From positions 647 to 64,646 of the forward strand of contig CAJTIX010000004.1 of assembly GCA_910576795.1 (NCBI GenBank): a DNA stretch of 64,000 nt, in the 5' to 3' direction. Of this stretch, positions 3,124 to 62,140 are shown piece after piece (positions within the stretch are counted from its first letter, which is position 1; each line of letters starts with the position of its first letter). Under the pieces are notes generated by a model. It was not told the DNA's origin. It was given only the letters and a program-made list of their open reading frames with translations, and ran no database searches. Made by a program: the position numbers and the translations under genes. The DNA is from an uncultured Bacilli bacterium (GTDB taxonomy: Bacteria > Bacillota_I > Bacilli_A > RF39 > UBA660).

Positions 3124-3939
3124 TTATCTTGTTTCTTTTTTGATTAACTTAGCGTGTAAAACAACTTTTTCACGATCATTATAACAGGTTGATAAAGTAA
3201 GAATATGATCATTTTCATTTATTGTGGTGTTAAAATTATGTGTACTTCTGTTCATTAACATATTTGCAAAGTCTAGAAAGTTTTGATTGTTTTTAAAGTT
3301 TGTTCGAATATAATCATTGGTTGTTGCAATATGGTATACACTAAATACTTGCCATAATGTATTTTCATACTCTGTGGATAACTTAATGACATAATTATTG
3401 GTATTATTTAACCAACCACTGGAAAGAATATTTTTTAAAGATCCAAACATTGTTGTATCTAATCTTCCATGCGCATAAATAATTGTATTTTTATCTAAAG
3501 TGGATAAATTGTTTCTATAATCTAGAAATACCCATCCTGCTGAATTGTAACTTTTATCAAAAGAATGTGTCAAATAATATTGATTATCATTTGCTTGTAC
3601 AAATGGATAATTGATGTTAGTTCCATTTACTTGAATCCAACCTACAGTAGATGGATTCATATTCTTTAGTTCCCCAAAATCCACATGAATTAAATTCATT
3701 TTGATATAATCCCAATATGGATTGGATTCCTCTACTTCTTCCACCTGTTCAACCACTTCCATATCATCTGGATCAGTTACCTCCTGGACATCTACAATCT
3801 GAGAGATTTCATCTACCATCTTTTTGGTATGCTTATTATCATTTTGCCACTGGATAATACGAATAATCGCAATGGTAATGCAAATAATAGATAGTAATGA
3901 GATACAAAGAAGAATGATATTTTTTCGCTTTAATTTCAC
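3124..3939 (-). CDS. srtB: Class B sortase (SrtB-like cysteine transpeptidase).
   Basis: There is an N-terminal TM anchor. The motif IIYAHGRLDTTMFGSL resembles the SrtB His-loop (IYGH...TMF), and LTLSTC is the TLxTC catalytic motif. Length is ~270 aa. Confidence 0.8.
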   Translation of the reverse strand: MKLKRKNIILLCISLLSIICITIAIIRIIQWQNDNKHTKKMVDEISQIVDVQEVTDPDDMEVVEQVEEVEESNPYWDYIKMNLIHVDFGELKNMNPSTVGWIQVNGTNINYPFVQANDNQYYLTHSFDKSYNSAGWVFLDYRNNLSTLDKNTIIYAHGRLDTTMFGSLKNILSSGWLNNTNNYVIKLSTEYENTLWQVFSVYHIATTNDYIRTNFKNNQNFLDFANMLMNRSTHNFNTTINENDHILTLSTCYNDREKVVLHAKLIKKETR

Positions 3940-4001
3940 TTAAATCACCTATTATTATTGTATCATGTTTTCGTTCACAAAAAAAGAGTCTTGCTTGACT
4001 C

Positions 4002-12330: not shown

Positions 12331-13032
12331 ATGAAACTTTCTCAAATTGATAATAGTTCGCTTCAAAATATATATCGGAATGGGAAACCAGATAGTAAAA
12401 TTATTTGTGATTTAACAGATGAGCAAATTAGCACTATTGTTTTTGGTGGAATAGCTGATAACCAAGAAAATTGCGATGTTGCTATTGTTTTTGGAAATAG
12501 TAATATGATTTTAGAAAGAACAAAGAAAGCTGTAGATATGTATCATCAAAAACGGACCAAATTATTATTATTTACTGGTGGAAGTGGTGGAGTTACAGCT
12601 AAGGAAGATGATTGTTTATCAGAAGCAGAAAAAATGGCTGATTTGGCCTTTCAATATGGTGTGCCACGAAATCATGTTTTGATTGAGAATCAGTCTAATA
12701 ATTCATTTGAAAACGTCTCTTATTCATTGAAATTATTGAAAGAAGAAATGGACATTAGTACATTGAGCAATATTATGTTAATTACATCAGATTTTCATCT
12801 CAAAAGATGTTATTCTATTTTCTTAAAATATTTACCAGATATAAAGTATTCATTAGTGGGAGTAAAAAACGGGTATTCTGATGAAGAAAATTGGATGAAT
12901 TCAGAACTATATTGGGGTTCAGGTAGAAGTATTGTTACATTTGAAGCAAATGCTTTAATTAACTATGCAAGACAATCAAAAATAAATGATTTACAGGTAG
13001 ATAATTATCCAATGAATGGAAAGCAGAAATGA
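12331..13032 (+). CDS. DUF218 (YdcF/SanA/ElyC-like) protein.
   Basis: VAIVFGNS ... LLLFTGGSGG ... ENQSNNSFENVSYS matches the DUF218 pattern. Confidence 0.6.
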   Translation: MKLSQIDNSSLQNIYRNGKPDSKIICDLTDEQISTIVFGGIADNQENCDVAIVFGNSNMILERTKKAVDMYHQKRTKLLLFTGGSGGVTAKEDDCLSEAEKMADLAFQYGVPRNHVLIENQSNNSFENVSYSLKLLKEEMDISTLSNIMLITSDFHLKRCYSIFLKYLPDIKYSLVGVKNGYSDEENWMNSELYWGSGRSIVTFEANALINYARQSKINDLQVDNYPMNGKQK

Positions 13033-14093
13033 TTTTCATGAAAAATAATGTAAAAGAAAACCAAATCTTAATCGATTGTATCCTACTTTTATTGATATGG
13101 TATGATACTCATAAAAGAGATTTGCCATGGAGAAGGGATCAGGATGCCTACCATATATGGATTTCTGAAATAATGTTACAACAAACAAGGGTAGAAGCAG
13201 TAATTGATTATTACAATCGTTTTATTCAGGAAATTCCTAATGTCAAAACATTAGCCACTATTTCAGAAGATCAATTGTTAAAATTATGGCAAGGTCTTGG
13301 ATACTATAGTAGAGCACGTAATCTTCAAAAAGCAGCAAAACAACTACTTCAGGAAGGAAAAGATGTATTACCTAGTACTTATACTGAATTACTAAAATTA
13401 CCTGGAATTGGTACTTATACCGCTGGAGCGATCGCTTCTATTGCTTATCAAGAAAAAGTGCCTGCGGTAGATGGAAATGTATTACGTGTGATTACACGTA
13501 TTTTGGGTAATTATGATGACATTGCTGATCCGAAAACCAAGACAAAATATGAAAATTTATTAAAACCATATATGCCAGAAAAAGAATCTGGAAATTTCAA
13601 TCAAGCTATGATGGAACTGGGTGCAACCATATGTATACCAAATGGTTTACCTAGATGTAATATTTGTCCAGTTGCCTCTATTTGTTGTGCCAATCAAAAA
13701 GGACTAATTGCGATGCTACCTGTGAAAACAAAAAAGCAAAAGAGAAAAACCATATCAAAGGTTGTATTTGTTTTTTGCTATGAAAATGAATATGCAATTC
13801 AAAAAAGACCAGCTCATGGTTTACTCGCATCTCTTTATGAATTTCCCAATATAGATTGTTCGATGGATTTAAATGAAGTAAAAGAATATCTTAATAATCA
13901 GGATATTTCCTATAAAAAGATTTCTCCACTAGGAAAATATAAACATATATTTACTCATTTAGAATGGGAAATGGATGGATATTTCATTGATTTGAATCAA
14001 AAAAATAATACTTATATATGGGTAACTTTAGAAGAAATGAGTACAAAATACTCTTTACCTACTGCATTTTCAAAAATTCTAAAAGATATCTAA
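13029..14093 (+). CDS. mutY: A/G-specific adenine DNA glycosylase MutY.
   Basis: It has an HhH-GPD fold (LPGIGTYTAGAI), a 4Fe-4S loop C-x6-C-x2-C-x5-C and a C-terminal NUDIX-like domain. Confidence 0.88.
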   Translation: MIFMKNNVKENQILIDCILLLLIWYDTHKRDLPWRRDQDAYHIWISEIMLQQTRVEAVIDYYNRFIQEIPNVKTLATISEDQLLKLWQGLGYYSRARNLQKAAKQLLQEGKDVLPSTYTELLKLPGIGTYTAGAIASIAYQEKVPAVDGNVLRVITRILGNYDDIADPKTKTKYENLLKPYMPEKESGNFNQAMMELGATICIPNGLPRCNICPVASICCANQKGLIAMLPVKTKKQKRKTISKVVFVFCYENEYAIQKRPAHGLLASLYEFPNIDCSMDLNEVKEYLNNQDISYKKISPLGKYKHIFTHLEWEMDGYFIDLNQKNNTYIWVTLEEMSTKYSLPTAFSKILKDI

Positions 14094-14121
14094 AAGTGAT
14101 ATGCAACTAGTTCATAAGTGC

Positions 14122-14150
14122 TTGCAATAAAATATCAATTATGCTATGAT
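14122..14150 (+). promoter_or_regulatory. Sigma-A promoter for the antisense RNA: TTGCAA-17-TATGAT.
   Basis: cTTGCAAtaaaatatcaattatgcTATGATgtatacag. Confidence 0.55.
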
Positions 14151-14156
14151 GTATAC

Positions 14157-14271
14157 AGATGAAGGAAACTTCATAAAATAAAAAGGGAATACTTAACTTT
14201 GGTGTGTTGAGTACTTACCTAAAATTGGGTTGTACTCTTAATCTATAACTGATTAGAGTACTATTTTTTTA
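14157..14271 (+). ncRNA. Candidate cis-antisense RNA (antitoxin-like), ~115 nt. It ends at a hairpin (14232-14262) followed by a T8 run.
   Basis: A promoter lies upstream and an intrinsic terminator lies downstream. It overlaps the 3' end and terminator of the convergent small-peptide mRNA and contains the GTTGAGTACTTACC box at 14206-14219. Confidence 0.45.
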
Positions 14272-14353
14272 TTTCTGCAATAATCAATAGTAGAAAGAAT
14301 AAAATGAGAATTATGTGTTGTAAAAACTTTATAATGAAAATTCTTTTTTTCAT
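14261..14353 (-). CDS. Small hydrophobic peptide, 30 aa (MKKRIFIIKFLQHIILILFFLLLIIAEIKK). It is a candidate type I toxin.
   Basis: A GGAAGGAGG SD lies 9 nt upstream. The peptide has a basic N-terminus, a single TM helix and a charged C-terminus. A promoter TTACAC-17-TATACT lies upstream on the - strand. A CUUCUU...AGGAAG hairpin can sequester the SD. Confidence 0.5.
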   Translation of the reverse strand: MKKRIFIIKFLQHIILILFFLLLIIAEIKK

Positions 14354-14516
14354 AATCTCAAACCTCCTTCCTATATAAGAAGCAGGCAAGTACTCAACAA
14401 TTAAGTTTCCCTAAAATAAGTATACAATACATTCACTAATAGTGTAATAATATATATTGTTTTCTATCAATTCATAAGTGCTTGCAATAAAATATCAATT
14501 ATGTTATCATGTATAT

Positions 14517-14629
14517 AGATGAAGGAAACTTCATAAAATAAAAAGGGAATACTTAACTTTGTCATGTTGAGTACTTACCTTAGTAAGAGTTTGTACTTTA
14601 ATCTATGCTGATTAGAGTACTATTTTTTT
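14517..14629 (+). ncRNA. Candidate antisense RNA of unit 2.
   Basis: Same promoter and terminator layout as unit 1. Confidence 0.4.
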
Positions 14630-14711
14630 ATTTCTGCAATAATCAATAGTAGAAAGAATAAAATGAGAATTATGTGTTGTAAAAATTTTATAATAAAATT
14701 CTTTTTTTCAT
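14620..14711 (-). pseudogene. Frameshifted copy of the small-peptide ORF. A 1-nt deletion gives MKKRILL*.
   Basis: Unit 1 has ...aattttCattataaag..., while unit 2 has ...aattttattataaaat.... The ORF is 92 nt instead of 93. Confidence 0.5.
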
Positions 14712-14830
14712 AATCTCAAGCCTCCTTCCTATGTAAGAAGTCGGCAAGTACTCAAGCAATTAAGTTTCCCTAATATAAGTAACAATATATTCACTAATAG
14801 TGCAATTAATTTTGAAATAAGGTGGTAAAT

Positions 14831-16006
14831 ATGAATCAATTATTAATGATCAAATATGGAGAATTAACGACTAAAAAAGCAAATCGAAATACCTTTATCA
14901 CATTGTTAACCAATAATATCAAAAATATTTTAAAAGAATATGAAATTACAATTCAAAAAGATAGAGTTCGTATGTATATTTCTTGTCACTCAAAAGATTG
15001 TAATGCCATCGTTTCAAAATTACAAAATGTTTTTGGAATTCATGGTATAGTGATTTGTCATAAAGTAAATACTAATATAGAAGATATTGAAACAAAAATA
15101 TTAGAATTATTACAAAATGAGCCATACCAAACTTTTAAAGTAGAAACCAAAAGAGCAGATAAAAGATTTCCAATTCCAAGTATGGAATTTAATAATAAAA
15201 TGGGAGGTTTTATCTTAAAAAATACAACTTTAAAAGTAGATGTTCACCATCCAGATGTACGAATTCATATTGAAATTCGTAATGAAGGAACATTCATTTA
15301 TACAAATGAAATGAAAGGAAATGGTGGATATCCAGTAGGTGTACAAGGAAAAGGCTTACTCATGCTTTCTGGGGGAATTGATAGCCCAGTTGCTGGATAT
15401 TTGTCTTTAAAACGTGGAATTGATTTAGAATGCCTTTATTTTGAGTCGCCTCCACATACGAGTTTAGAAGCAAAAAACAAAGTAATCCAACTTGCTTCTA
15501 TCATCAATCAATATTCCGGAAATATTAAGGTGAATGTCATTCCTTTTACTAAAATTCAAGAGGAAATTTATAAAAATGTTCCAGATAGTTATATTATTAC
15601 CATTATGAGAAGAATGATGTATCGTATTGCAGAAAGAGTTTGTAAACTGCATAAGTGTAAGGTAATCATCAATGGCGAAAGTGTTGGCCAAGTAGCAAGC
15701 CAAACATTAGATAGTATGGTTGTAATCAATTCTGTTACGAATTTGCCAGTGATTCGACCAGTTGCTTGTATGGATAAATTGGAAATCATTGAACTTGCTA
15801 AAAAAATAGAAACTTATGAGACGAGTATTTTACCATATGAAGATTGTTGTACTATCTTTTTGCCAAAACATCCTGTGATTTATCCAGATATAGAAAAAGC
15901 GATTGCCTATGAAAATCGTTTTGACTATGAAACATTAATAGAAGAATGCATTGCACATATGGAAACAATTACAACATTTGAAACCAATACAAGTTCTTAT
16001 TTATAA
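14831..16006 (+). CDS. thiI: tRNA 4-thiouridine(8) synthase ThiI.
   Basis: It has a THUMP domain and the PP-loop motif MLSGGIDSPVAGY. An AAGGTGG RBS is present. The GTG at 14822 in the ORF track is an upstream extension. Confidence 0.9.
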   Translation: MNQLLMIKYGELTTKKANRNTFITLLTNNIKNILKEYEITIQKDRVRMYISCHSKDCNAIVSKLQNVFGIHGIVICHKVNTNIEDIETKILELLQNEPYQTFKVETKRADKRFPIPSMEFNNKMGGFILKNTTLKVDVHHPDVRIHIEIRNEGTFIYTNEMKGNGGYPVGVQGKGLLMLSGGIDSPVAGYLSLKRGIDLECLYFESPPHTSLEAKNKVIQLASIINQYSGNIKVNVIPFTKIQEEIYKNVPDSYIITIMRRMMYRIAERVCKLHKCKVIINGESVGQVASQTLDSMVVINSVTNLPVIRPVACMDKLEIIELAKKIETYETSILPYEDCCTIFLPKHPVIYPDIEKAIAYENRFDYETLIEECIAHMETITTFETNTSSYL

Positions 16007-16058: not shown

Positions 16059-16082
16059 ATTAGTGTACAGGAGGTGAAACAT

Positions 16083-16289
16083 ATGAAAAACAATACTAAT
16101 AAAATGGTAGTTCCTGGAGCTAAACAAGCTATCGATAAGATGAAATATGAAATCGCTAGTGAATTAGGTGTTAACATGGGACCAGATGCAACTAGTAGAG
16201 CTAACGGATCAGTTGGTGGTGAAATTACTAGACGTTTAGTTCAAATGGGTGAACAACACTTAGGTGGTTCAAATTACCAAGCTAAATAA
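16083..16289 (+). CDS. Small acid-soluble spore protein, alpha/beta type.
   Basis: [10 protein letters not shown] ... GGEITRRLV are the conserved SASP boxes. A GGAGGTG RBS is present. Confidence 0.9.
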
Positions 16290-16402: not shown

Positions 16403-16600
16403 ATGAGTCATTTGAATAATAAATTAGTTGTTCCTGGATCAAAACAGGCAATTGAAAATTTAAAATATGAAATCGCAAATGAACTAGGTATCACTTTAGG
16501 AGCCGATACAACTTCTAGATTAAATGGTACCGTTGGTGGCGAAATGACAAGAAGGCTCGTTCGTTTAGGTGAACAAGCTTTAGAAAGTCAAAATCGATAA
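16403..16600 (+). CDS. Small acid-soluble spore protein, alpha/beta type (second paralogue).
   Basis: [10 protein letters not shown] ... GGEMTRRLV. An AAGGTGG RBS is present. Confidence 0.9.
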
Positions 16601-41905: not shown

Positions 41906-43120
41906 ATGAATAATTTTCAAGTTGTTGTAGATGCTGGCCATGGAGGGAGCGACCCAGGTGCTGTAGCAAACGGTGTTCAAGAAAAAGATTTGAATTTACA
42001 AATAGCTCGTTATATGTATGAACAATTTCAAAACAAAGGAATTCCAGTTACACTAATTCGTAGTACAGATGAAACCATTAGCCCAACAGAACGTGTCAAT
42101 AGAATACTTGCTGCTTATGGAGATAATCCCAATGTCATTGTAATATCAAATCATATCAATGCATCTGGTTCAGCAACTTCAGGAGCAGAGGGTGCTGAAG
42201 TTATTTATGCCTTAAGAAATGATGATACACTTGCTAAAAACATATTACAAGCATTAGGAAATGCAGGTCAAGTTGTAAGAACTTATTATCAAAGAAGGCT
42301 ACCAAGTGATACCTCAAAAGATTATTATTTCATTCATAGAAATACAGGAAGTACACAACCTGTTATTGTAGAATATGGATATATCGATAATCCAACTGAT
42401 TTAGCGCGCATTCAAAATAATTATAAAAAATATGTAGATGCAGTAGTCAATGCCGTAATCGCAACCGAACAAGGTGCAACTATCCCATCTACTCCAGGAA
42501 CAGGGACTTCTTATGTGGTAAAATCAGGGGATAGTTTATGGAGTATCGCAAACCGTTATAATACCACTGTAAATGCCATTAAAAACATGAACAATCTAAC
42601 GAGTAATGCATTATCTGTAGGACAGGTATTACAAATTCCAACAAGTACATCTACAGGAACTGGAAATACGTACACAGTCAAATCAGGAGACAGCCTATGG
42701 AGTATCGCAAACCGCTATAATACCACTGTAGATGCGATTAAAAACGCGAATAATTTAACTGGCAATACCCTATCTATTGGGCAAGTACTCAGAATTCCAA
42801 CAAGTACTTCTACGGGAACAGGAAACACATACACAGTCAAATCAGGAGACAGCCTATGGAGTATCGCAAATCGCTATAATACCACCGTAAATGCAATCAA
42901 AAATGCCAATAATTTAACCAGTGATTCCTTATCGATAGGACAGGTATTAACCATTCCAACCAGTACCTCTACAGGGAAAACAACTTATACAGTTAAATCA
43001 GGAGATAGCTTATGGAGTATTGCGCAACGTTACAATACGACTGTAGATGCGATCAAAAATGCAAGTGGAATTATTAGTAATAACTTAAGTATTGGGCAGG
43101 TATTAACCATTCCAAATTAG
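41906..43120 (+). CDS. N-acetylmuramoyl-L-alanine amidase (Amidase_3) with four C-terminal LysM repeats.
   Basis: VVDAGHGGSDPGA ... NHINAS are Amidase_3 motifs. There are 4x YTVKSGDSLWSIANRYNTTV ... IGQVL LysM repeats. Confidence 0.85.
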   Translation: MNNFQVVVDAGHGGSDPGAVANGVQEKDLNLQIARYMYEQFQNKGIPVTLIRSTDETISPTERVNRILAAYGDNPNVIVISNHINASGSATSGAEGAEVIYALRNDDTLAKNILQALGNAGQVVRTYYQRRLPSDTSKDYYFIHRNTGSTQPVIVEYGYIDNPTDLARIQNNYKKYVDAVVNAVIATEQGATIPSTPGTGTSYVVKSGDSLWSIANRYNTTVNAIKNMNNLTSNALSVGQVLQIPTSTSTGTGNTYTVKSGDSLWSIANRYNTTVDAIKNANNLTGNTLSIGQVLRIPTSTSTGTGNTYTVKSGDSLWSIANRYNTTVNAIKNANNLTSDSLSIGQVLTIPTSTSTGKTTYTVKSGDSLWSIAQRYNTTVDAIKNASGIISNNLSIGQVLTIPN

Positions 43121-43198
43121 AAACGGGCTTGTCCGTTTTTTTGTGATATGACATTGTAAAATCTATATTTTTTAGATATAATAAAATTGGTGATTTTT

Positions 43199-46267: not shown

Positions 46268-47458
46268 ATGAAAGTATTATCAGTAAATGCGGGTAGTTCT
46301 ACACTAAAATTTCGTTTGTATGAAATGCCTGAAGAAAAAGTATTAGCGAAGGGTGCATTTGAACGAATTGGGTTAGAAAATGGTATTTATAATATCAAAA
46401 TGAACGATGAAAAAATAGAAAAGTCTCTCAATATGAAAGATCATGGAGATGCTGTACAGGCTTTATTGAAAGAATTAGTAGAACAACATATGATTGAAAA
46501 TCTGGATGAAATTGGAGCTGTTGGTCATCGTGTAGTACATGGAGGCTCTAAATATGCCAAAAGTGTAATCATTGATGATGAAGTAATGAAGGAAATTGAA
46601 TCTATTTCTGATTTGGCGCCATTACACAATCCTGCCAATTTAATTGGGATTCGAGCATTTAAAGAAGCAATTCCTAATGCAATTCAAGTAGCTTGTTTTG
46701 ATACAGCTTTTCATCAAACAATGGACGAAAGAAATTACTTGTATCCAGTACCATATGAATGGTATACCAAATATGGAGTTCGTAAATATGGATTCCATGG
46801 TATGAGCCATAAATTTATTACGGAAAAGATGAAATCTATTTTAAACTCAGAAACGCCAAATTTAATTATATGCCACATTGGAAATGGAGCAAGTATCTCT
46901 GCCGTAAGAGAAGGAATTTGTATCGATACCTCTATGGGATTTACTCCAAATGCAGGAATTATGATGGGAACGCGTAGTGGAGATATTGATTATACAATGA
47001 TTCAGTACTTGAAGAACAAAATGGATTCTAGTTATGAAAGTATTGATAGTTTACTCAACAAAGCAAGTGGTTTAGAAGGAATTGCTGGTAGAAGTGATTT
47101 AAGAGATTTGGATGATGCTTTCCTTGCAAAAGAACCAGCCGTTATTCTTGCTTTTGCTATGTATACTGACCGAATTGTGGATTATATCGCTAGATACTAT
47201 GTCAAATTAGATGGTCATGTAGATGCGATTTGCTTTACCGCAGGTGTAGGTGAAAACGATTCTATTATTCGTGCAGAAGTTCTTAAGAAATTAACTTGTT
47301 TAGGAATTCTATTAGATGAAGAAAAAAATAATGCAACACTTTGTAGAAAAGGTGTAGAAGGTATTATTACAAGAGATGACTCTAAAATTCCATGTTATGT
47401 ACTTGGTACAGATGAAGAGTTGATGATTGCAAGAGATACTTATGATTTTGTAAATTAA
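46268..47458 (+). CDS. ackA: Acetate kinase.
   Basis: VLSVNAGSSTLKF ... VVHGG ... CFDTAFHQTM ... FHGMSH. Confidence 0.9.
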   Translation: MKVLSVNAGSSTLKFRLYEMPEEKVLAKGAFERIGLENGIYNIKMNDEKIEKSLNMKDHGDAVQALLKELVEQHMIENLDEIGAVGHRVVHGGSKYAKSVIIDDEVMKEIESISDLAPLHNPANLIGIRAFKEAIPNAIQVACFDTAFHQTMDERNYLYPVPYEWYTKYGVRKYGFHGMSHKFITEKMKSILNSETPNLIICHIGNGASISAVREGICIDTSMGFTPNAGIMMGTRSGDIDYTMIQYLKNKMDSSYESIDSLLNKASGLEGIAGRSDLRDLDDAFLAKEPAVILAFAMYTDRIVDYIARYYVKLDGHVDAICFTAGVGENDSIIRAEVLKKLTCLGILLDEEKNNATLCRKGVEGIITRDDSKIPCYVLGTDEELMIARDTYDFVN

Positions 47459-48005: not shown

Positions 48006-49187
48006 ATGAAAATTATGTCAATCAACGCAGGAAGTAGTTCTTTAAAATTTAGTGTCTTTGATATGGATTATTCTACTTGTATTGCAAGTGGTTACTTTGA
48101 AAGAGTTACTTTACCAAATAGTTTTTATACAATAAAATACAATGGAGAAAAAATAAAAGAAGAAATCGATATGCCAACACATAGGATAGCGGTTGAGGTA
48201 TTATTGGATCGACTTGTTTCCTTACATATTATTGATTCCTTAGATGAAATAGGTGGTGTAGGTCATCGTCTTGCCCATGGAATGGATAAATATAAACATT
48301 CTGTCTTAATTACAGATGAAGTCATTCAAGATTTAAAAAGCTATATTCCACTCGCACCATTACATCTTCCAGCCCATATATTGGGAATTGAAGTCATGAA
48401 AGAAGTATTACCAAATATTCCTATGATAGGTGTTTTTGATACAGCTTTTCATCAAACCATGGATCAAACGAAATACATTTATCCAGTGCCATACGAATGG
48501 TATACAAAATATGGTGTCCGTAAATATGGATTTCATGGAACGAGCTATTGTTTTATTAGCAAACAAATTCCAAGATTACTTGGCAAACAAGAATATAAAG
48601 CAATTATTTGCCATTTAGGAAGTGGGGGTTCTATCGCACTTGTTCAGAATGGAAAGTGTCTAGATACTACAATGGGCTTTACCCCTCTTGCAGGAATTAT
48701 GATGGGTACCCGTAGTGGGGATATTGATCCTTCTATCGTTGCATATATGGTAGGACAAACAGGAAAACCGATAGATGAAATTATGAATGACTTGAATAAA
48801 CATTCTGGTTTCTTAGGTTTGAGCGGGAAATCCAGTGATTTTAGAGATATTTATGAAGGTGTAAAAGCAAATGATGAGAATTGTATTTTGGCGTTTCATA
48901 AATATGTCGATACGGTTGTCAAATATATTGCAGAGTATTATGTAGAAGCAAGTGGCGTAGATACCATTGTATTTACTGCAGGACTTGGAGAAAATGCGGT
49001 AGCTGCAAGGGAGGTAATTATAGAAAGACTTGCTTGTTTAGGTATTTATCTAGATCACGAGGCAAATCAAGTAACAGGAGAAGAAATTTGTATTAGTTCT
49101 AAAGATTCTAAAGTTTCTGTTTATGTAATTCCTACAAATGAAGAATTAATGATCGCACAAGATACGTTAGAAATTATTGGTGGATAA
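48006..49187 (+). CDS. Second acetate/propionate kinase family paralogue.
   Basis: IMSINAGSSSLKF ... FDTAFHQTM ... FHGTSY. It is ~45% identical to the first copy. Confidence 0.85.
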   Translation: MKIMSINAGSSSLKFSVFDMDYSTCIASGYFERVTLPNSFYTIKYNGEKIKEEIDMPTHRIAVEVLLDRLVSLHIIDSLDEIGGVGHRLAHGMDKYKHSVLITDEVIQDLKSYIPLAPLHLPAHILGIEVMKEVLPNIPMIGVFDTAFHQTMDQTKYIYPVPYEWYTKYGVRKYGFHGTSYCFISKQIPRLLGKQEYKAIICHLGSGGSIALVQNGKCLDTTMGFTPLAGIMMGTRSGDIDPSIVAYMVGQTGKPIDEIMNDLNKHSGFLGLSGKSSDFRDIYEGVKANDENCILAFHKYVDTVVKYIAEYYVEASGVDTIVFTAGLGENAVAAREVIIERLACLGIYLDHEANQVTGEEICISSKDSKVSVYVIPTNEELMIAQDTLEIIGG

Positions 49188-59900: not shown

Positions 59901-61595
59901 CTATTCACTCTTAGTTTCTTTTTTGTTTTTCTTAATATCCATGATTACAGGTAATATAATTGGTTTTCTACCCGTTTTTTCATATGCATATGTAGATAAT
60001 TGTGTGATGATTTCTTGTTTCATATCTGCATAATTGATTGGTGGGGCAAGTTTGGATAGAATTGCGTTTTTACAAATCATTTCTAAATGTTTGAGCAATT
60101 CTTCATTTTCATTGACAAGTACAAATCCCCTTGTAGTGATATTGACTTTTCCAAGTAATTTCGCACCTCTTGTATCAATGTTTGCAATTACAACAATGAT
60201 ACCATCATTGGCCATAATTTTTCTGTCTTTGATCACAGCTGCTCCAATATCCCCAATGCGATTTCCATCAACATAGATATCACCTGCTGGAATCATACCT
60301 GCTTTTTTGATATTTCCTTTATACATGGATAAAATTTCGCCATTTCCTAAAATGAAGGTATTTTCTTTCGGAATTCCACATAGAATACCCAAATCAGCAT
60401 GCTGCTTTAGCATTCGATATTCACCATGAAATGGCATTAAATATTTTGGTTTCATAAGTCGGATCATTAATTTTAACTCTTCTTGATATGCATGACCAGA
60501 GGTATGAATATCACTTAAAGAGGTATTGGTGTATACATCGACACCTTGTAAGTATAACTTATTAATGGTTCTAGAAATACTTAGTGCATTTCCAGGGATT
60601 GCGGATGATGAAAAAATCACGGTATCATCTGGTTGTAATTTAATGGAGCGATGTACGCCATTGGCAATCCTTGATAAGGCTGCAAGCGGTTCTCCTTGAC
60701 TACCTGTACAGAGTAGACAAACTTGATTGGCTGGCAAATGATTGGCCTCTTCTGGTGTGATGAAAATATCTTTGTTTTTGATATATCCACCTTGTATGGA
60801 AATTTCAATGTTGTTTTCCATACTTCTTCCAAATGTCGCGATTTTTCTACCATTTTTTTTACAAGTATCAACAATGTGTTTTAACCGGTAAATATTAGAA
60901 GCAAAGGTAGCGATAATGATTCTACCACTTTTTCTTCTAAAAATTTCTTGTAATGCATGATCGACACGAGATTCACTCGCACTCATGCCTTCATTTAAAG
61001 CGTTGGTACTGTCGCTCAGTAATAGTGTCACACCTCTTTTTCCAATCGCAGCCATTTTATGAATGTTTGCCATTGGTCCAATTGGAGTAAGGTCAAATTT
61101 GAAGTCTCCTGTTGTTACTACAGTTCCATTTGGTGTTGTAATACAAATTCCATGAGAATCCGGAATGGAGTGTGTAGTTCTAAAAAATTCTACTTCAATG
61201 TATTTGAATTTTACTTTGGTTCTTTCGTCATATACCACAATATTTTTATATTGAATATTTCTATCTTCTAATTTTTTCTTAATCAAACCAACTGCTTGAT
61301 TTGGCGCATAAATGATAGGAATATTAACCGTTTGTAATAAAAATGGAATTGCTCCAATATGATCTTCATGACCATGTGTAATAAATAAGGCTTTGATTTT
61401 AGTTTCATTCTTTTTTAAAAAAGAAAAATCTGGAATGACATAGTCAACACCCATCAATTCTCCTTCTGGAAAAGTAATACCCGCATCCGTTATAATGAGT
61501 TCGTTATTATGCATTACACAATACATATTTTTTCCGACTTCACCAAGGCCACCTAACGCAAAAATTTTGGTGTCCTCGTTGTTAAAAAATTTCAT
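59901..61595 (-). CDS. rnj: Ribonuclease J.
   Basis: It has a metallo-beta-lactamase domain (HGHEDHIG) followed by beta-CASP and C-terminal domains at ~560 aa total. Confidence 0.92.
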   Translation of the reverse strand: MKFFNNEDTKIFALGGLGEVGKNMYCVMHNNELIITDAGITFPEGELMGVDYVIPDFSFLKKNETKIKALFITHGHEDHIGAIPFLLQTVNIPIIYAPNQAVGLIKKKLEDRNIQYKNIVVYDERTKVKFKYIEVEFFRTTHSIPDSHGICITTPNGTVVTTGDFKFDLTPIGPMANIHKMAAIGKRGVTLLLSDSTNALNEGMSASESRVDHALQEIFRRKSGRIIIATFASNIYRLKHIVDTCKKNGRKIATFGRSMENNIEISIQGGYIKNKDIFITPEEANHLPANQVCLLCTGSQGEPLAALSRIANGVHRSIKLQPDDTVIFSSSAIPGNALSISRTINKLYLQGVDVYTNTSLSDIHTSGHAYQEELKLMIRLMKPKYLMPFHGEYRMLKQHADLGILCGIPKENTFILGNGEILSMYKGNIKKAGMIPAGDIYVDGNRIGDIGAAVIKDRKIMANDGIIVVIANIDTRGAKLLGKVNITTRGFVLVNENEELLKHLEMICKNAILSKLAPPINYADMKQEIITQLSTYAYEKTGRKPIILPVIMDIKKNKKETKSE

Positions 61596-61782
61596 AAATA
61601 CTCCTTTCTTCTCGATTTGAAATCTAACGTATTACATTATAACTGTTTTTTTGACTTTTGTAAATGACCAATTTTTTTATTGCACTATTAGTGAATAAAT
61701 AGTATAATTGAGATGGGAATATTTGACTGTTGAGTACTTACCAAATTTCTATTCTAAAGAATAGGAAGGAGGTTTGATTTTT

Positions 61783-61863
61783 ATGAAAAGAAGAGAAAAT
61801 TTTCAATTTATAATTATCATTTTATTAATAGTTTCAATTATGATTCTATGCATAAAAAAATAG
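61783..61863 (+). CDS. Small hydrophobic peptide, 26 aa (MKRRENFQFIIIILLIVSIMILCIKK). It is a candidate type I toxin.
   Basis: A promoter TTGCAC-17-TATAAT (61680-61708) lies upstream. An SD GGAAGGAGG lies 9 nt upstream, with a CTATTC/GAATAG hairpin abutting it. The complement of the 5' box, GGTGAGTACTCAAC, lies in the 3' end. Confidence 0.5.
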   Translation: MKRRENFQFIIIILLIVSIMILCIKK

Positions 61864-61966
61864 CACTCAATCTTCAGATTCAGTGCTTACACTAAAATTA
61901 TTAGGTGAGTACTCAACATGGAAAAGTTAAGTATTCCCACTTTATTATATGAAGTTTCCTTCATCT
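61853..61966 (-). ncRNA. Candidate antisense RNA of copy 3.
   Basis: A - strand promoter TTGACA-17-TACTAT lies at 61973-62001. A hairpin at 61863-61888 plus a T-run on the - strand overlaps the last codons of the peptide ORF. Confidence 0.4.
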
Positions 61967-62140
61967 ATATACATAGTAGCACAAATATATAATCATGTCA
62001 ATTTTCTTGCATTATGAATGAATGTTTTTTGAAAATATAGCCTTGTGAATAAGTACATAAAAATGTAACGTTTTTACTTGATGTTTTTGTTTATTTTCGG
62101 TACAATATAATTAGGGTAAAAGAATAGAAAAGAGGGCTAT

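Follow-up and report, generated by a model that had tools for sequence, protein, structure and literature searches.

What is encoded by an intergenic repeat of about 335 bp that occurs three times in one stretch of a bacterial genome? The stretch, called the window hereafter, comprises 64,000 nucleotides (nt) of contig CAJTIX010000004.1 (positions 647 to 64,646; assembly GCA_910576795.1) from an uncultured Bacilli bacterium of the RF39 lineage. The repeat, a module of ~340 bp when taken as a whole, is present as two tandem copies (copy 1, 14111-14444; copy 2, 14471-14802) and as an inverted one (copy 3, 61680-62005). A first-pass annotation, made from the letters alone, had proposed that each copy has the complete architecture of a type I toxin-antitoxin (TA) locus, in which a hydrophobic micropeptide is opposed by a convergent antisense RNA. 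The sequence and the alignment bear out the three copies at the positions given; two of them are complete, and in copy 2 the toxin is disabled. The TA interpretation is supported, as it passes every in silico test. We hold it to be very probable that the unit is a real pair of peptide gene and antisense gene with a functional clamp between the two ends of the peptide messenger RNA (mRNA), and we consider it likely, by analogy with characterised loci, that the pair works as a true toxin and antitoxin in the manner described below.

Architecture of the unit

Read in the toxin sense, the unit is composed of box A, box B, a hairpin holding the Shine-Dalgarno (SD) sequence, the open reading frame (ORF), hairpin T with its arms T5 and T3, the boxes C5 and C3, and a U run. 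Box A (GGGAAUACUUAAC-like) would form the extreme 5' end of the toxin RNA, 6-8 nt past the -10 box. Box B has the consensus GUUGAGURCUURCC and C5 the consensus GGYRAGUACUCAAC, while C3 is GUUAAGUAUUCCC and is followed by the U run. The 5' box GUUGAGUACUU(G/A)CC and the SD GGAAGGAGG within a short hairpin were confirmed in the sequence, and the SD hairpin is conserved in homologues. It had further been claimed that the 3' box is the exact complement of the 5' box; this is not so, as each copy has one G·U position instead. The predicted sense RNA has AGGGAA at its start and ends just past CCCUUUUU.

The toxin promoter has a good -10 box and a weak -35 box, and the -10 is TATAAT in 62 of 89 homologous units. 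The opposing antisense promoter is near-consensus and, on comparison at the sequence level, is the stronger of the two. The -35 boxes TTGCAA/TTGACA and the 17-nt spacing proposed for it are correct, and each of the antisense -10 boxes in the window (TATGAT, TATCAT and TACTAT) carries an extended -10 TG in addition. In homologues the TG is present in 71 of 75 units and the 17-nt spacer in 72 of 75. The antisense RNA is predicted to start ~7 nt past the extended -10. An invariant 15-nt stretch, GCACTATTAGTGAAT, which holds the palindrome CACTA-T-TAGTG, lies between the -35 and -10 boxes of the toxin promoter in all three window copies (14424-14441 and 14783-14799 on the minus strand, 61686-61700 on the plus strand). 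This stretch is not present in the homologous units of other genomes, and the palindrome could be an operator for a host-specific repressor.

According to the first-pass annotation the two transcripts would share one bidirectional terminator. The sequence contradicts this. Hairpin T, which overlaps the stop codon or lies just past it, has a U run on the antisense strand only, and none follows it directly on the toxin strand. The toxin-strand terminator is formed by hairpin C and its U run, ~75 nt beyond hairpin T. By sequence there are two separate terminators, and the central hairpin is the predicted terminator of the antisense RNA only. The toxin mRNA must continue past the antisense terminator hairpin, so that its 3' untranslated region (UTR) overlaps the antisense RNA (~115 nt) over the full length of the latter. 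The two are complementary from the stop codon as far as C3 extends; the complementarity that had been described for the toxin 3' region and its clamp box thus covers the full 3' UTR. The antisense terminator was also correctly said to cover the peptide stop codon, its T7 run being the complement of the Lys-Lys-stop codons (14261-14272 and 61852-61863; AAAAAAATAG). Since the conserved C-terminal Lys-Lys-stop of peptides ending in IKK templates the antisense U run, the C-terminus of the peptide and the RNA terminator constrain each other.

Copy 1 is complete. Its toxin promoter was located by sequence and scan on the minus strand at 14419-14447 (TTACAC at 14447-14442, 17 nt, TATACT at 14424-14419). 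The predicted toxin mRNA of ~237 nt (14176-14412, minus strand) extends from the AGGGAA 5' end to the U run after C3. Boxes A (GGGAAACUUAAUU, 14399-14411) and B (GUUGAGUACUUGCC, 14385-14398), at 14385-14411 together on the minus strand, have C3 and C5 as their partners. The SD (14363-14371, minus strand) is placed within a local hairpin CUUC...GAAG with an outer stem of the GCC/GGC type, and the ORF (14261-14353, minus strand) encodes a peptide of 30 amino acids (aa), MKKRIFIIKFLQHIILILFFLLLIIAEIKK. Hairpin T (T3/T5, 14232-14261), the stem of the antisense terminator, overlaps the stop codon, and the T7 of the plus strand (14264-14270) stands next to it. Hairpin C (14185-14219) consists on the toxin strand of C5 GGUAAGUACUCAAC (14206-14219) and C3 GUUAAGUAUUCCC (14185-14197); it would be the 3' arm of the clamp in the toxin mRNA and the central hairpin in the antisense RNA. 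On the plus strand the antisense promoter is found at 14122-14150 (TTGCAA, 17 nt, TG-n-TATGAT), and the predicted antisense RNA of ~116 nt (14157-14272) begins with a GAAA-loop hairpin at its 5' end, continues through an A/U-rich linker and hairpin C, and ends in terminator T.

Copy 3 is likewise complete, with its toxin gene on the plus strand. The promoter (61680-61708) has TTGCAC at 61680-61685 and TATAAT at 61703-61708 with 17 nt between them, and the predicted mRNA of ~233 nt covers 61715-61947. Boxes A GGGAAUAUUUGACU and B GUUGAGUACUUACC (61715-61742) form a cognate duplex of -38.1 kcal/mol; they are followed by the SD GGAAGGAGG, seen in the sequence at 61764-61772, and an ORF (61783-61863) for the 26-aa peptide MKRRENFQFIIIILLIVSIMILCIKK, to which near-identical peptides occur in loci L041, L056 and L084. 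Hairpin T, AGCACUCAAUCU-UC-AGAUUCAGUGCU (61862-61887), shows a compensatory change from U-A to C-G with respect to copies 1 and 2. Hairpin C (61904-61938) contains C5 GGUGAGUACUCAAC at 61904-61917 and C3 GUUAAGUAUUCCC at 61926-61938. The antisense promoter (TTGACA, 17 nt, TG-n-TACTAT) is on the minus strand at 61973-62001, and the antisense RNA of ~114 nt is predicted at 61853-61966 on the same strand.

The claim that every unit has a sigma-A toxin promoter and an ORF of 26-30 codons holds for copies 1 and 3 and fails for copy 2. The peptide gene of copy 2 (remnant at 14620-14711, minus strand) is dead because of 1-nt deletions in codon 6 and in the -10 box: the former truncates the product to MKKRILL* (14688-14711), and the latter changes TATACT to T-TACT in the promoter remnant (14778-14805, minus strand), where TTGCAC is kept and the best match is 7/12. 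Boxes A and B (AGGGAAACUUAAUUG / CUUGAGUACUUGCC) are still present at 14743-14771 on the minus strand. The antisense promoter (14482-14510, plus strand; TTGCAA, 17 nt, TG-n-TATCAT) and the predicted antisense RNA (14517-14631, plus strand; terminator stem 14593-14620 and T run) are intact. Judged by its sequence, copy 2 combines a toxin pseudogene with an antisense gene that is intact and would still supply antisense RNA.

Folding of the RNAs, which had been suggested as a check, gave energies well outside what chance would produce. For the toxin mRNA of copy 1 a minimum free energy (MFE) of -68.1 kcal/mol was found (z = -7.5), and for that of copy 3 an MFE of -74.5 kcal/mol (z = -9.2), again with the 5'-3' clamp. 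In the predicted fold of copy 1 the initial ~28 nt are paired with the final ~35 nt. The antisense RNAs of copies 1, 2 and 3 have z = -4.4, -5.1 and -5.4, respectively, and 0 of 200 shuffles fold as well.

Conservation of the peptide and of the RNA structure

A pattern scan for the 3' box (GTACTCAAC-N4-10-GTTAAGTAYTCCC, exact) was made in one-genome-per-species bacterial contigs. The element, for which a search of related genomes had been recommended, was found in at least 118 contigs, representing about 105 species-level assemblies among the matches listed, and all of them are metagenome-assembled genomes (MAGs) of uncultured gut bacteria, from the order RF39 and its relatives. The listed MAGs are from human, mouse, rabbit, ruminant and chicken hosts, and are labelled Bacilli, Tenericutes, Erysipelotrichaceae, Candidatus (Ca.) Coprosoma, Ca. 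Faecisoma and CAG:822. Ca. Coprosoma and Ca. Faecisoma belong to the family CAG-822 of the GTDB order RF39 (PMC8035907). In addition, a profile search of the fetched loci revealed diverged paralogues, often adjoining a class 1 unit, in which A, B, T5, T3, C5 and C3 are all rewritten and the antisense promoter and 5' hairpin are kept.

If the ORF were broken at random in other genomes, the element would be a non-coding repeat. The ORF is conserved. Among the matches listed, SD, ATG and an ORF of 24-31 codons are intact in ~96 of 114 distinct units, the intact ORFs ending just before or within hairpin T. In the aligned set it is intact in 83 of 89 units. Indels in the homologous units preserve the frame. 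The peptides of 24-31 aa share a basic N-terminus and a hydrophobic stretch of ~20 residues, a predicted single transmembrane helix. The ratio of nonsynonymous to synonymous polymorphism (pN/pS) is 0.26 for the peptides of 27 aa (n=28), 0.37 for those of 29 aa (n=21) and 0.28 for those of 24 aa (n=13), and within the length classes codon position 2 is the least variable. By these sequence measures the peptide ORF is under purifying selection. An alpha type of peptide, MxKKD[FL]LIxxLI[IL]IIxLLIxLLF... (for example MKKKDLLISFLILIIILLIVSLMILCIKK), can be distinguished from a beta type, MxK[RT]xFI[IL]K[FV]LxxI...IKK, which includes copy 1 and has homologous members in L064, L089, L016, L037 and L057; the variant MKRRENFQF... 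includes copy 3.

About 18 units are without an intact toxin: in 4 the ATG is changed to ATA or ATC, at least 3 have frameshifts and ~10 have lost the 5' half. Inactivation of the toxin is recurrent while the antisense gene is kept, and recurrent inactivation is the pattern expected of a harmful gene. A unit in L016 (~3600-3950) lacks the antisense promoter and 5' hairpin, and its toxin SD is also mutated (GGAAGGTGG); here the toxin may have been silenced following the loss of its antidote.

It had been anticipated that protein-based annotation would miss the element. Gene callers never predicted the peptides, and an exact look-up of 10 of them against 15 billion predicted proteins found none present. 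Pfam and NCBIfam scans of 9 peptides gave no match to a toxin family at E <= 10, PF16935 (Hol_Tox) included, and none to the Fst models NF033608 and PF13955. The libraries can detect toxins of 30 aa, since the positive controls match: BsrG (1.8e-8) and TxpA (1.8e-7) with PF16935, and Fst and SprA1 with NF033608/PF13955. An Rfam scan of the window at the gathering threshold returned only a transfer RNA (tRNA) elsewhere, and a permissive scan of the locus returned only chance matches with E >= 2. Literature searches, whose coverage is incomplete and which are hence no proof of absence, found no description of the family. It is a previously undescribed family of a known kind of system, and it adds widespread genes that are invisible to gene callers, Pfam, NCBIfam and Rfam.

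The RNA structure was examined in an alignment of 89 non-redundant full units, from which all pair counts are taken. MFE and centroid folds of the full-length sense RNA both contain A:C3 and B:C5, ~27 bp that join the two ends. Paired cells amount to 85.7% for A:C3, 96.4% for B:C5, 88% for hairpin T and 73% for the inner SD hairpin, as against 36-47% in controls slid by 1-3 columns. It was found that 25 pairs have changed on both sides as compared to 12.5 in shuffles, a number that 0 of 500 shuffles reach; in hairpin T 10 of 11 pairs have such double changes, and the SD hairpin has compensatory changes as well, for example CCUCC-GAAA-GGAGG in other units. On the toxin strand B:C5 has 177 G·U cells vs 9 A·C cells, and pair 35-264 is GU in 38 units, GC in 28, AU in 18 and AC in 0. 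On this sequence evidence the clamp complementarity is strand-specific and kept at the RNA level. When leaders and tails of four classes of units were paired, cognate duplexes had -30 to -35 kcal/mol, cross-class duplexes -16 to -27 and shuffled leaders -9.9±3. The retention of cognate duplexes across four rewritten classes is the strongest evidence for a functional 5'-3' clamp.

The antisense gene is the best conserved part of the unit, its promoter and 5' GAAA hairpin being common to all four classes. Its consensus fold has 8 covarying pairs, and there is covariation in both hairpin C and hairpin T. As compared to the sense strand, the antisense strand favours hairpin T by 3.0 kcal/mol (79 of 89 units) and hairpin C by 2.4 kcal/mol (83 of 89 units). 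In hairpin T, a C·A mismatch of the sense strand corresponds to G·U in the antisense RNA. Box B was found to have a further partner, as B:T5 is 95.3% paired. At pair 31-192, 57 units have GC, 29 have AU and 3 are unpaired; for the triple B31/T5-192/T3-223, G/C/G was counted in 56 units and A/U/A in 27. In a modelled transcript that ends after T3, B:T5 has a median probability (P) of 0.77 and the T hairpin of 0.18. In the modelled full-length RNA these become ~0 and 0.93, with B:C5 at 0.96.

Both the clamp (P ~0.5) and the outer stem of the SD hairpin (P ~0.4) involve the GCC that lies at the 3' edge of B. With the 3' UTR masked, as if the antisense RNA were bound, the outer stem rises from ~0.4 to 0.77 (median 0.99), and the unpaired probability of the two 3' G of the SD falls from 0.18 to 0.03, with a clear drop in 23 of 82 units and the reverse in none. 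The clamp as a clear on/off switch of the SD was rejected, as the SD core is unpaired with much the same probability in all modelled states and the outer stem alone changes. The core being mostly paired in every state, the effect is one of tightening and not of switching.

Several points weigh against the TA interpretation and the clamp on which it depends. The aligned sequences are related, so that the shuffle controls overstate significance, and the 3' boxes of class 1 units are unable to vary, being fixed by the search pattern. This pattern lies inside the antisense gene, and the excess of units with a decayed toxin and an intact antisense gene is therefore biased by ascertainment. The covariation of B with T5 would be explained just as well if B paired in trans with the antisense RNA, at the 5' arm of its terminator. 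Among the modelled free, clamped and antisense-masked RNAs the SD core shows no consistent shift in accessibility (unpaired ~0.22-0.24 over four states). Finally, the U run is poor in the terminator on the toxin strand of copy 3 (ACUUUAUUAU).

Proposed mechanism, precedents and rival explanations

We infer from the conserved anatomy how the locus would be transcribed, how a toxic product would be neutralised and where nucleases would act. A weak sigma-A promoter would give a toxin mRNA of ~235 nt that starts exactly at box A and holds its SD in a local hairpin. A and B (~28 nt) would pair with C5 and C3 (~35 nt) in a panhandle ending in the U run of the terminator. From the opposite strand a stronger extended -10 promoter would produce the antisense RNA of ~115 nt, and its pairing with the toxin 3' UTR would create a long duplex for RNase III and displace the 5' arm, by analogy with bsrG/SR4. 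Nucleases would have access to the exposed 5' end, and the hairpin that sequesters the SD could be completed by the freed GCC from the edge of B. The RNase III-dependent decay is suggested by the perfect duplex of ~115 bp, and degradation of this long duplex is probably the main route. The thermodynamic models further suggest a folding pathway in which B takes up T5 first while the mRNA is transcribed, so that the antisense terminator hairpin would not form in the sense transcript before C5 is available.

An extension of this model, in which box B would be a three-partner RNA switch and the family a set of naturally programmable orthogonal modules, is put forward tentatively and appears doubtful to us. 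In this extension B, when paired with T5 in the nascent RNA, would act as an anti-terminator against the terminator hairpin of the antisense gene. As C5 emerges, B would move to it and the 5'-3' clamp would close; the antisense RNA would then evict B, after which the SD would be locked. The six boxes would have been rewritten together at least four times, giving address classes that coexist in one genome without cross-talk. Decayed copies like copy 2 would persist as stand-alone antidote genes, and sites downstream of tRNA genes could supply read-through antisense transcription.

The hallmarks of type I TA systems listed in T1TAdb include 5'-3' interactions and anti-SD elements (PMC8594479). 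At the sequence level the unit has a small hydrophobic ORF with an SD, a cis-antisense gene, and an SD hairpin together with the clamp. By analogy, the right precedent is bsrG/SR4 of Bacillus subtilis. In bsrG/SR4 and its relatives txpA/RatA, bsrE/SR5 and yonT/SR6 the genes are convergent and the antisense RNA overlaps the 3' part of the toxin mRNA, as here. Helix P1 of bsrG mRNA is formed by nt 1-35 and nt 232-262, immediately ahead of the terminator (PMC3834814). SR4 is complementary to the 3' part of bsrG; in the complex nt 1-33 are single-stranded and the SD helix has 8 bp instead of 4, and the mRNA is degraded by RNase III (PMC3834814). The present unit resembles this system in its long helix, which ties the initial ~35 nt to a stretch near the 3' end, immediately before the terminator, in its half-buried SD and in the greater strength of its antisense promoter, and our model runs in the same direction, with the antisense RNA covering the 3' arm, freeing the 5' arm and extending the SD helix. 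The differences are that the peptides have 24-31 aa and no PF16935 match, unlike those of the BsrG/TxpA family with 38-59 aa, that the antisense RNA has ~115 nt vs ~180 nt and matches no Rfam model, and that box B has a second covarying partner (T5) and comes in several orthogonal classes.

The first-pass annotation had likened the layout to fst/RNAII, txpA/ratA and bsrG/SR4, and the clamp to the fold-back structures of hok and fst. The convergent 3' overlap, the likeness to bsrG/SR4 and the clamp itself, with covariation in A:C3 and B:C5, stand; the likeness to fst/RNAII does not. In the par locus of the Enterococcus plasmid pAD1 direct repeats make the 5' ends of fst and RNAII complementary. 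RNAII pairs at both the 3' and 5' regions (PMC3834814). Like par (fst/RNAII, Fst/Ldr superfamily), the unit has a convergent mRNA for a hydrophobic toxin of ~30 aa and a small RNA across a common hairpin, and a 5' structure that limits translation. Unlike in par, the repeat is inverted and pairs intramolecularly; the antisense RNA carries GUUGAGUACUUACC, which has the orientation of the toxin 5' box, so that the two are unable to pair. Pairing of the 5'-5' type as in fst was rejected for this reason. Moreover, the peptides match neither NF033608 nor PF13955 and there is no shared bidirectional terminator.

In hok/sok of plasmid R1 and aapA1/IsoA1 of Helicobacter pylori a 5'-3' interaction also closes the full-length toxin mRNA, and metastable co-transcriptional structures are predicted as here. 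In those systems, however, the target of the antisense RNA is the 5' leader and the mRNA must be trimmed at its 3' end to become active, whereas here the 3' arm is the target. Unlike in hok/sok, no overlapping leader ORF of the mok type was found at the locus, and no part of the antisense RNA is placed outside the 3' UTR; neither the peptides nor the phyla are related to those of either system. Like the Correia elements of Neisseria and the RUP and BOX elements of pneumococci, the unit is a short intergenic sequence present in multiple copies, and its terminal inverted repeats fold as RNA; it differs from them in its selected ORF, its two promoters and its strand-specific covariation tolerant of G·U.

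Three other explanations were weighed. The ORF selection, the promoters, the antisense gene and the clamp, all of them computed, speak for a regulated small gene and not for toxicity, and they would suit an ordinary non-toxic membrane protein, such as a transporter or envelope regulator, tuned by a cis-antisense RNA. We regard this as unlikely, given that multi-copy and tandem arrays and several address classes in one genome are typical of type I TA systems, that the ORF has been knocked out repeatedly by loss of the start codon or by frameshift, that translation is doubly locked by SD hairpin and clamp under an antisense promoter stronger than the sense one, and that no conserved functional gene neighbourhood was found.

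Alternatively, the ~115-nt RNA could be a trans-acting small regulatory RNA, with the sense transcript as its sponge or decoy and the peptide unimportant. The superior conservation of the antisense gene, with promoter and GAAA hairpin in all four classes, its persistence where the toxin half is deleted, and the copy of the toxin leader sequence that its RNA carries are in line with such a role. The strong SD and the selection on peptide coding are not, ascertainment accounts for part of the conservation seen in orphan antisense genes, and no candidate targets in trans were found, all matches to the element in the window being within the copies themselves; this explanation is thus very improbable.

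A miniature inverted-repeat transposable element with A/B and C5/C3 as its terminal inverted repeats and an incidental ORF and promoters, which the ~28-bp inverted repeats around ~200 bp, the multi-copy, intergenic and sometimes tandem occurrence and the location of 27 of 152 units <200 nt from a tRNA 3' end, always in one orientation, might suggest, was rejected in view of the selection on the ORF and of a G·U-tolerant covariation confined to one strand (177 G·U vs 9 A·C) and has hardly any probability left, the more so as the duplicated unit in the window reaches past the inverted repeats to include both promoters, no transposase or target-site duplication is evident (duplications were not systematically searched) and plasmid, phage and viral collections hold no copies.

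The clamp logic known from bsrG/SR4 gains strong comparative support from at least four naturally co-varied address classes, which make the mechanism and its orthogonality directly testable. At about 340 bp the units could also be of use as compact parts in RNA-based regulation or in counter-selection. The genomes of RF39 and related gut Bacilli are small (~1.5 Mb), and these bacteria are without cultured representatives.

Genomic context and other features of the window

The tandem pair sits between mutY (13029-14093) and thiI (14822-16006), and the inverted copy 3 between the RNase J gene (59901-61595, minus strand) and that of phosphoketolase (from 62141); the flanking genes had been named correctly. 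Copies 1 and 2 have 95% identity across blocks of 110 and 101 nt, copy 3 is 86-88% complementary to them across 82-84 nt, and the mean column identity of the three-copy alignment is 82%. A permissive nhmmer scan of the window gave just the known three. The antisense genes of copies 1 and 2 have the same direction as the upstream mutY. An identical mutY is present in L002, a contig from Logan (ERR3199523), which stops 47 nt past the gene where the repeat begins, implying that the element breaks short-read assemblies.

In other genomes the unit is also multi-copy, with tandem arrays of up to 3-4 units per 8 kb. Mixed arrays, with class 1 beside class 2 or 3, were seen in L010 (930-1650), L064 (6664-7263), L019, L029 and L055, where the units have the antisense promoter and GAAA hairpin in common and all six pairing boxes different. 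The 27 units near tRNA genes (Leu, Met, Arg, Lys, Thr and others) correspond to ~10x the local tRNA density, and tRNA and antisense gene are co-directional in all, for example in L011 (1164-1374), L078 (384-567) and L025 (6751-6972). No match to the element was found by blastn in phage and plasmid collections or by the box pattern in viral contigs, so these searches give no sign of a mobile-element origin.

Two tandem genes for small acid-soluble spore proteins (PF00269) are located at 16074-16289 and 16403-16600, with 71% DNA identity over 178 nt. Their sequences indicate a spore-forming member of a reduced-genome clade. This fits RF39, an uncultured order of which some members are predicted spore formers (PMC10868615). 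Elsewhere in the window, four tandem direct repeats of ~159 nt with 62-77% identity (family D1, 42489-43131) probably represent a repeated protein domain. Two paralogous genes (46689-46990 and 48427-48728), 1738 nt apart, have 81-83% identity in conserved blocks and a GIMMGTRSGDID motif, which we take to resemble a motif of acetate/butyrate kinases.

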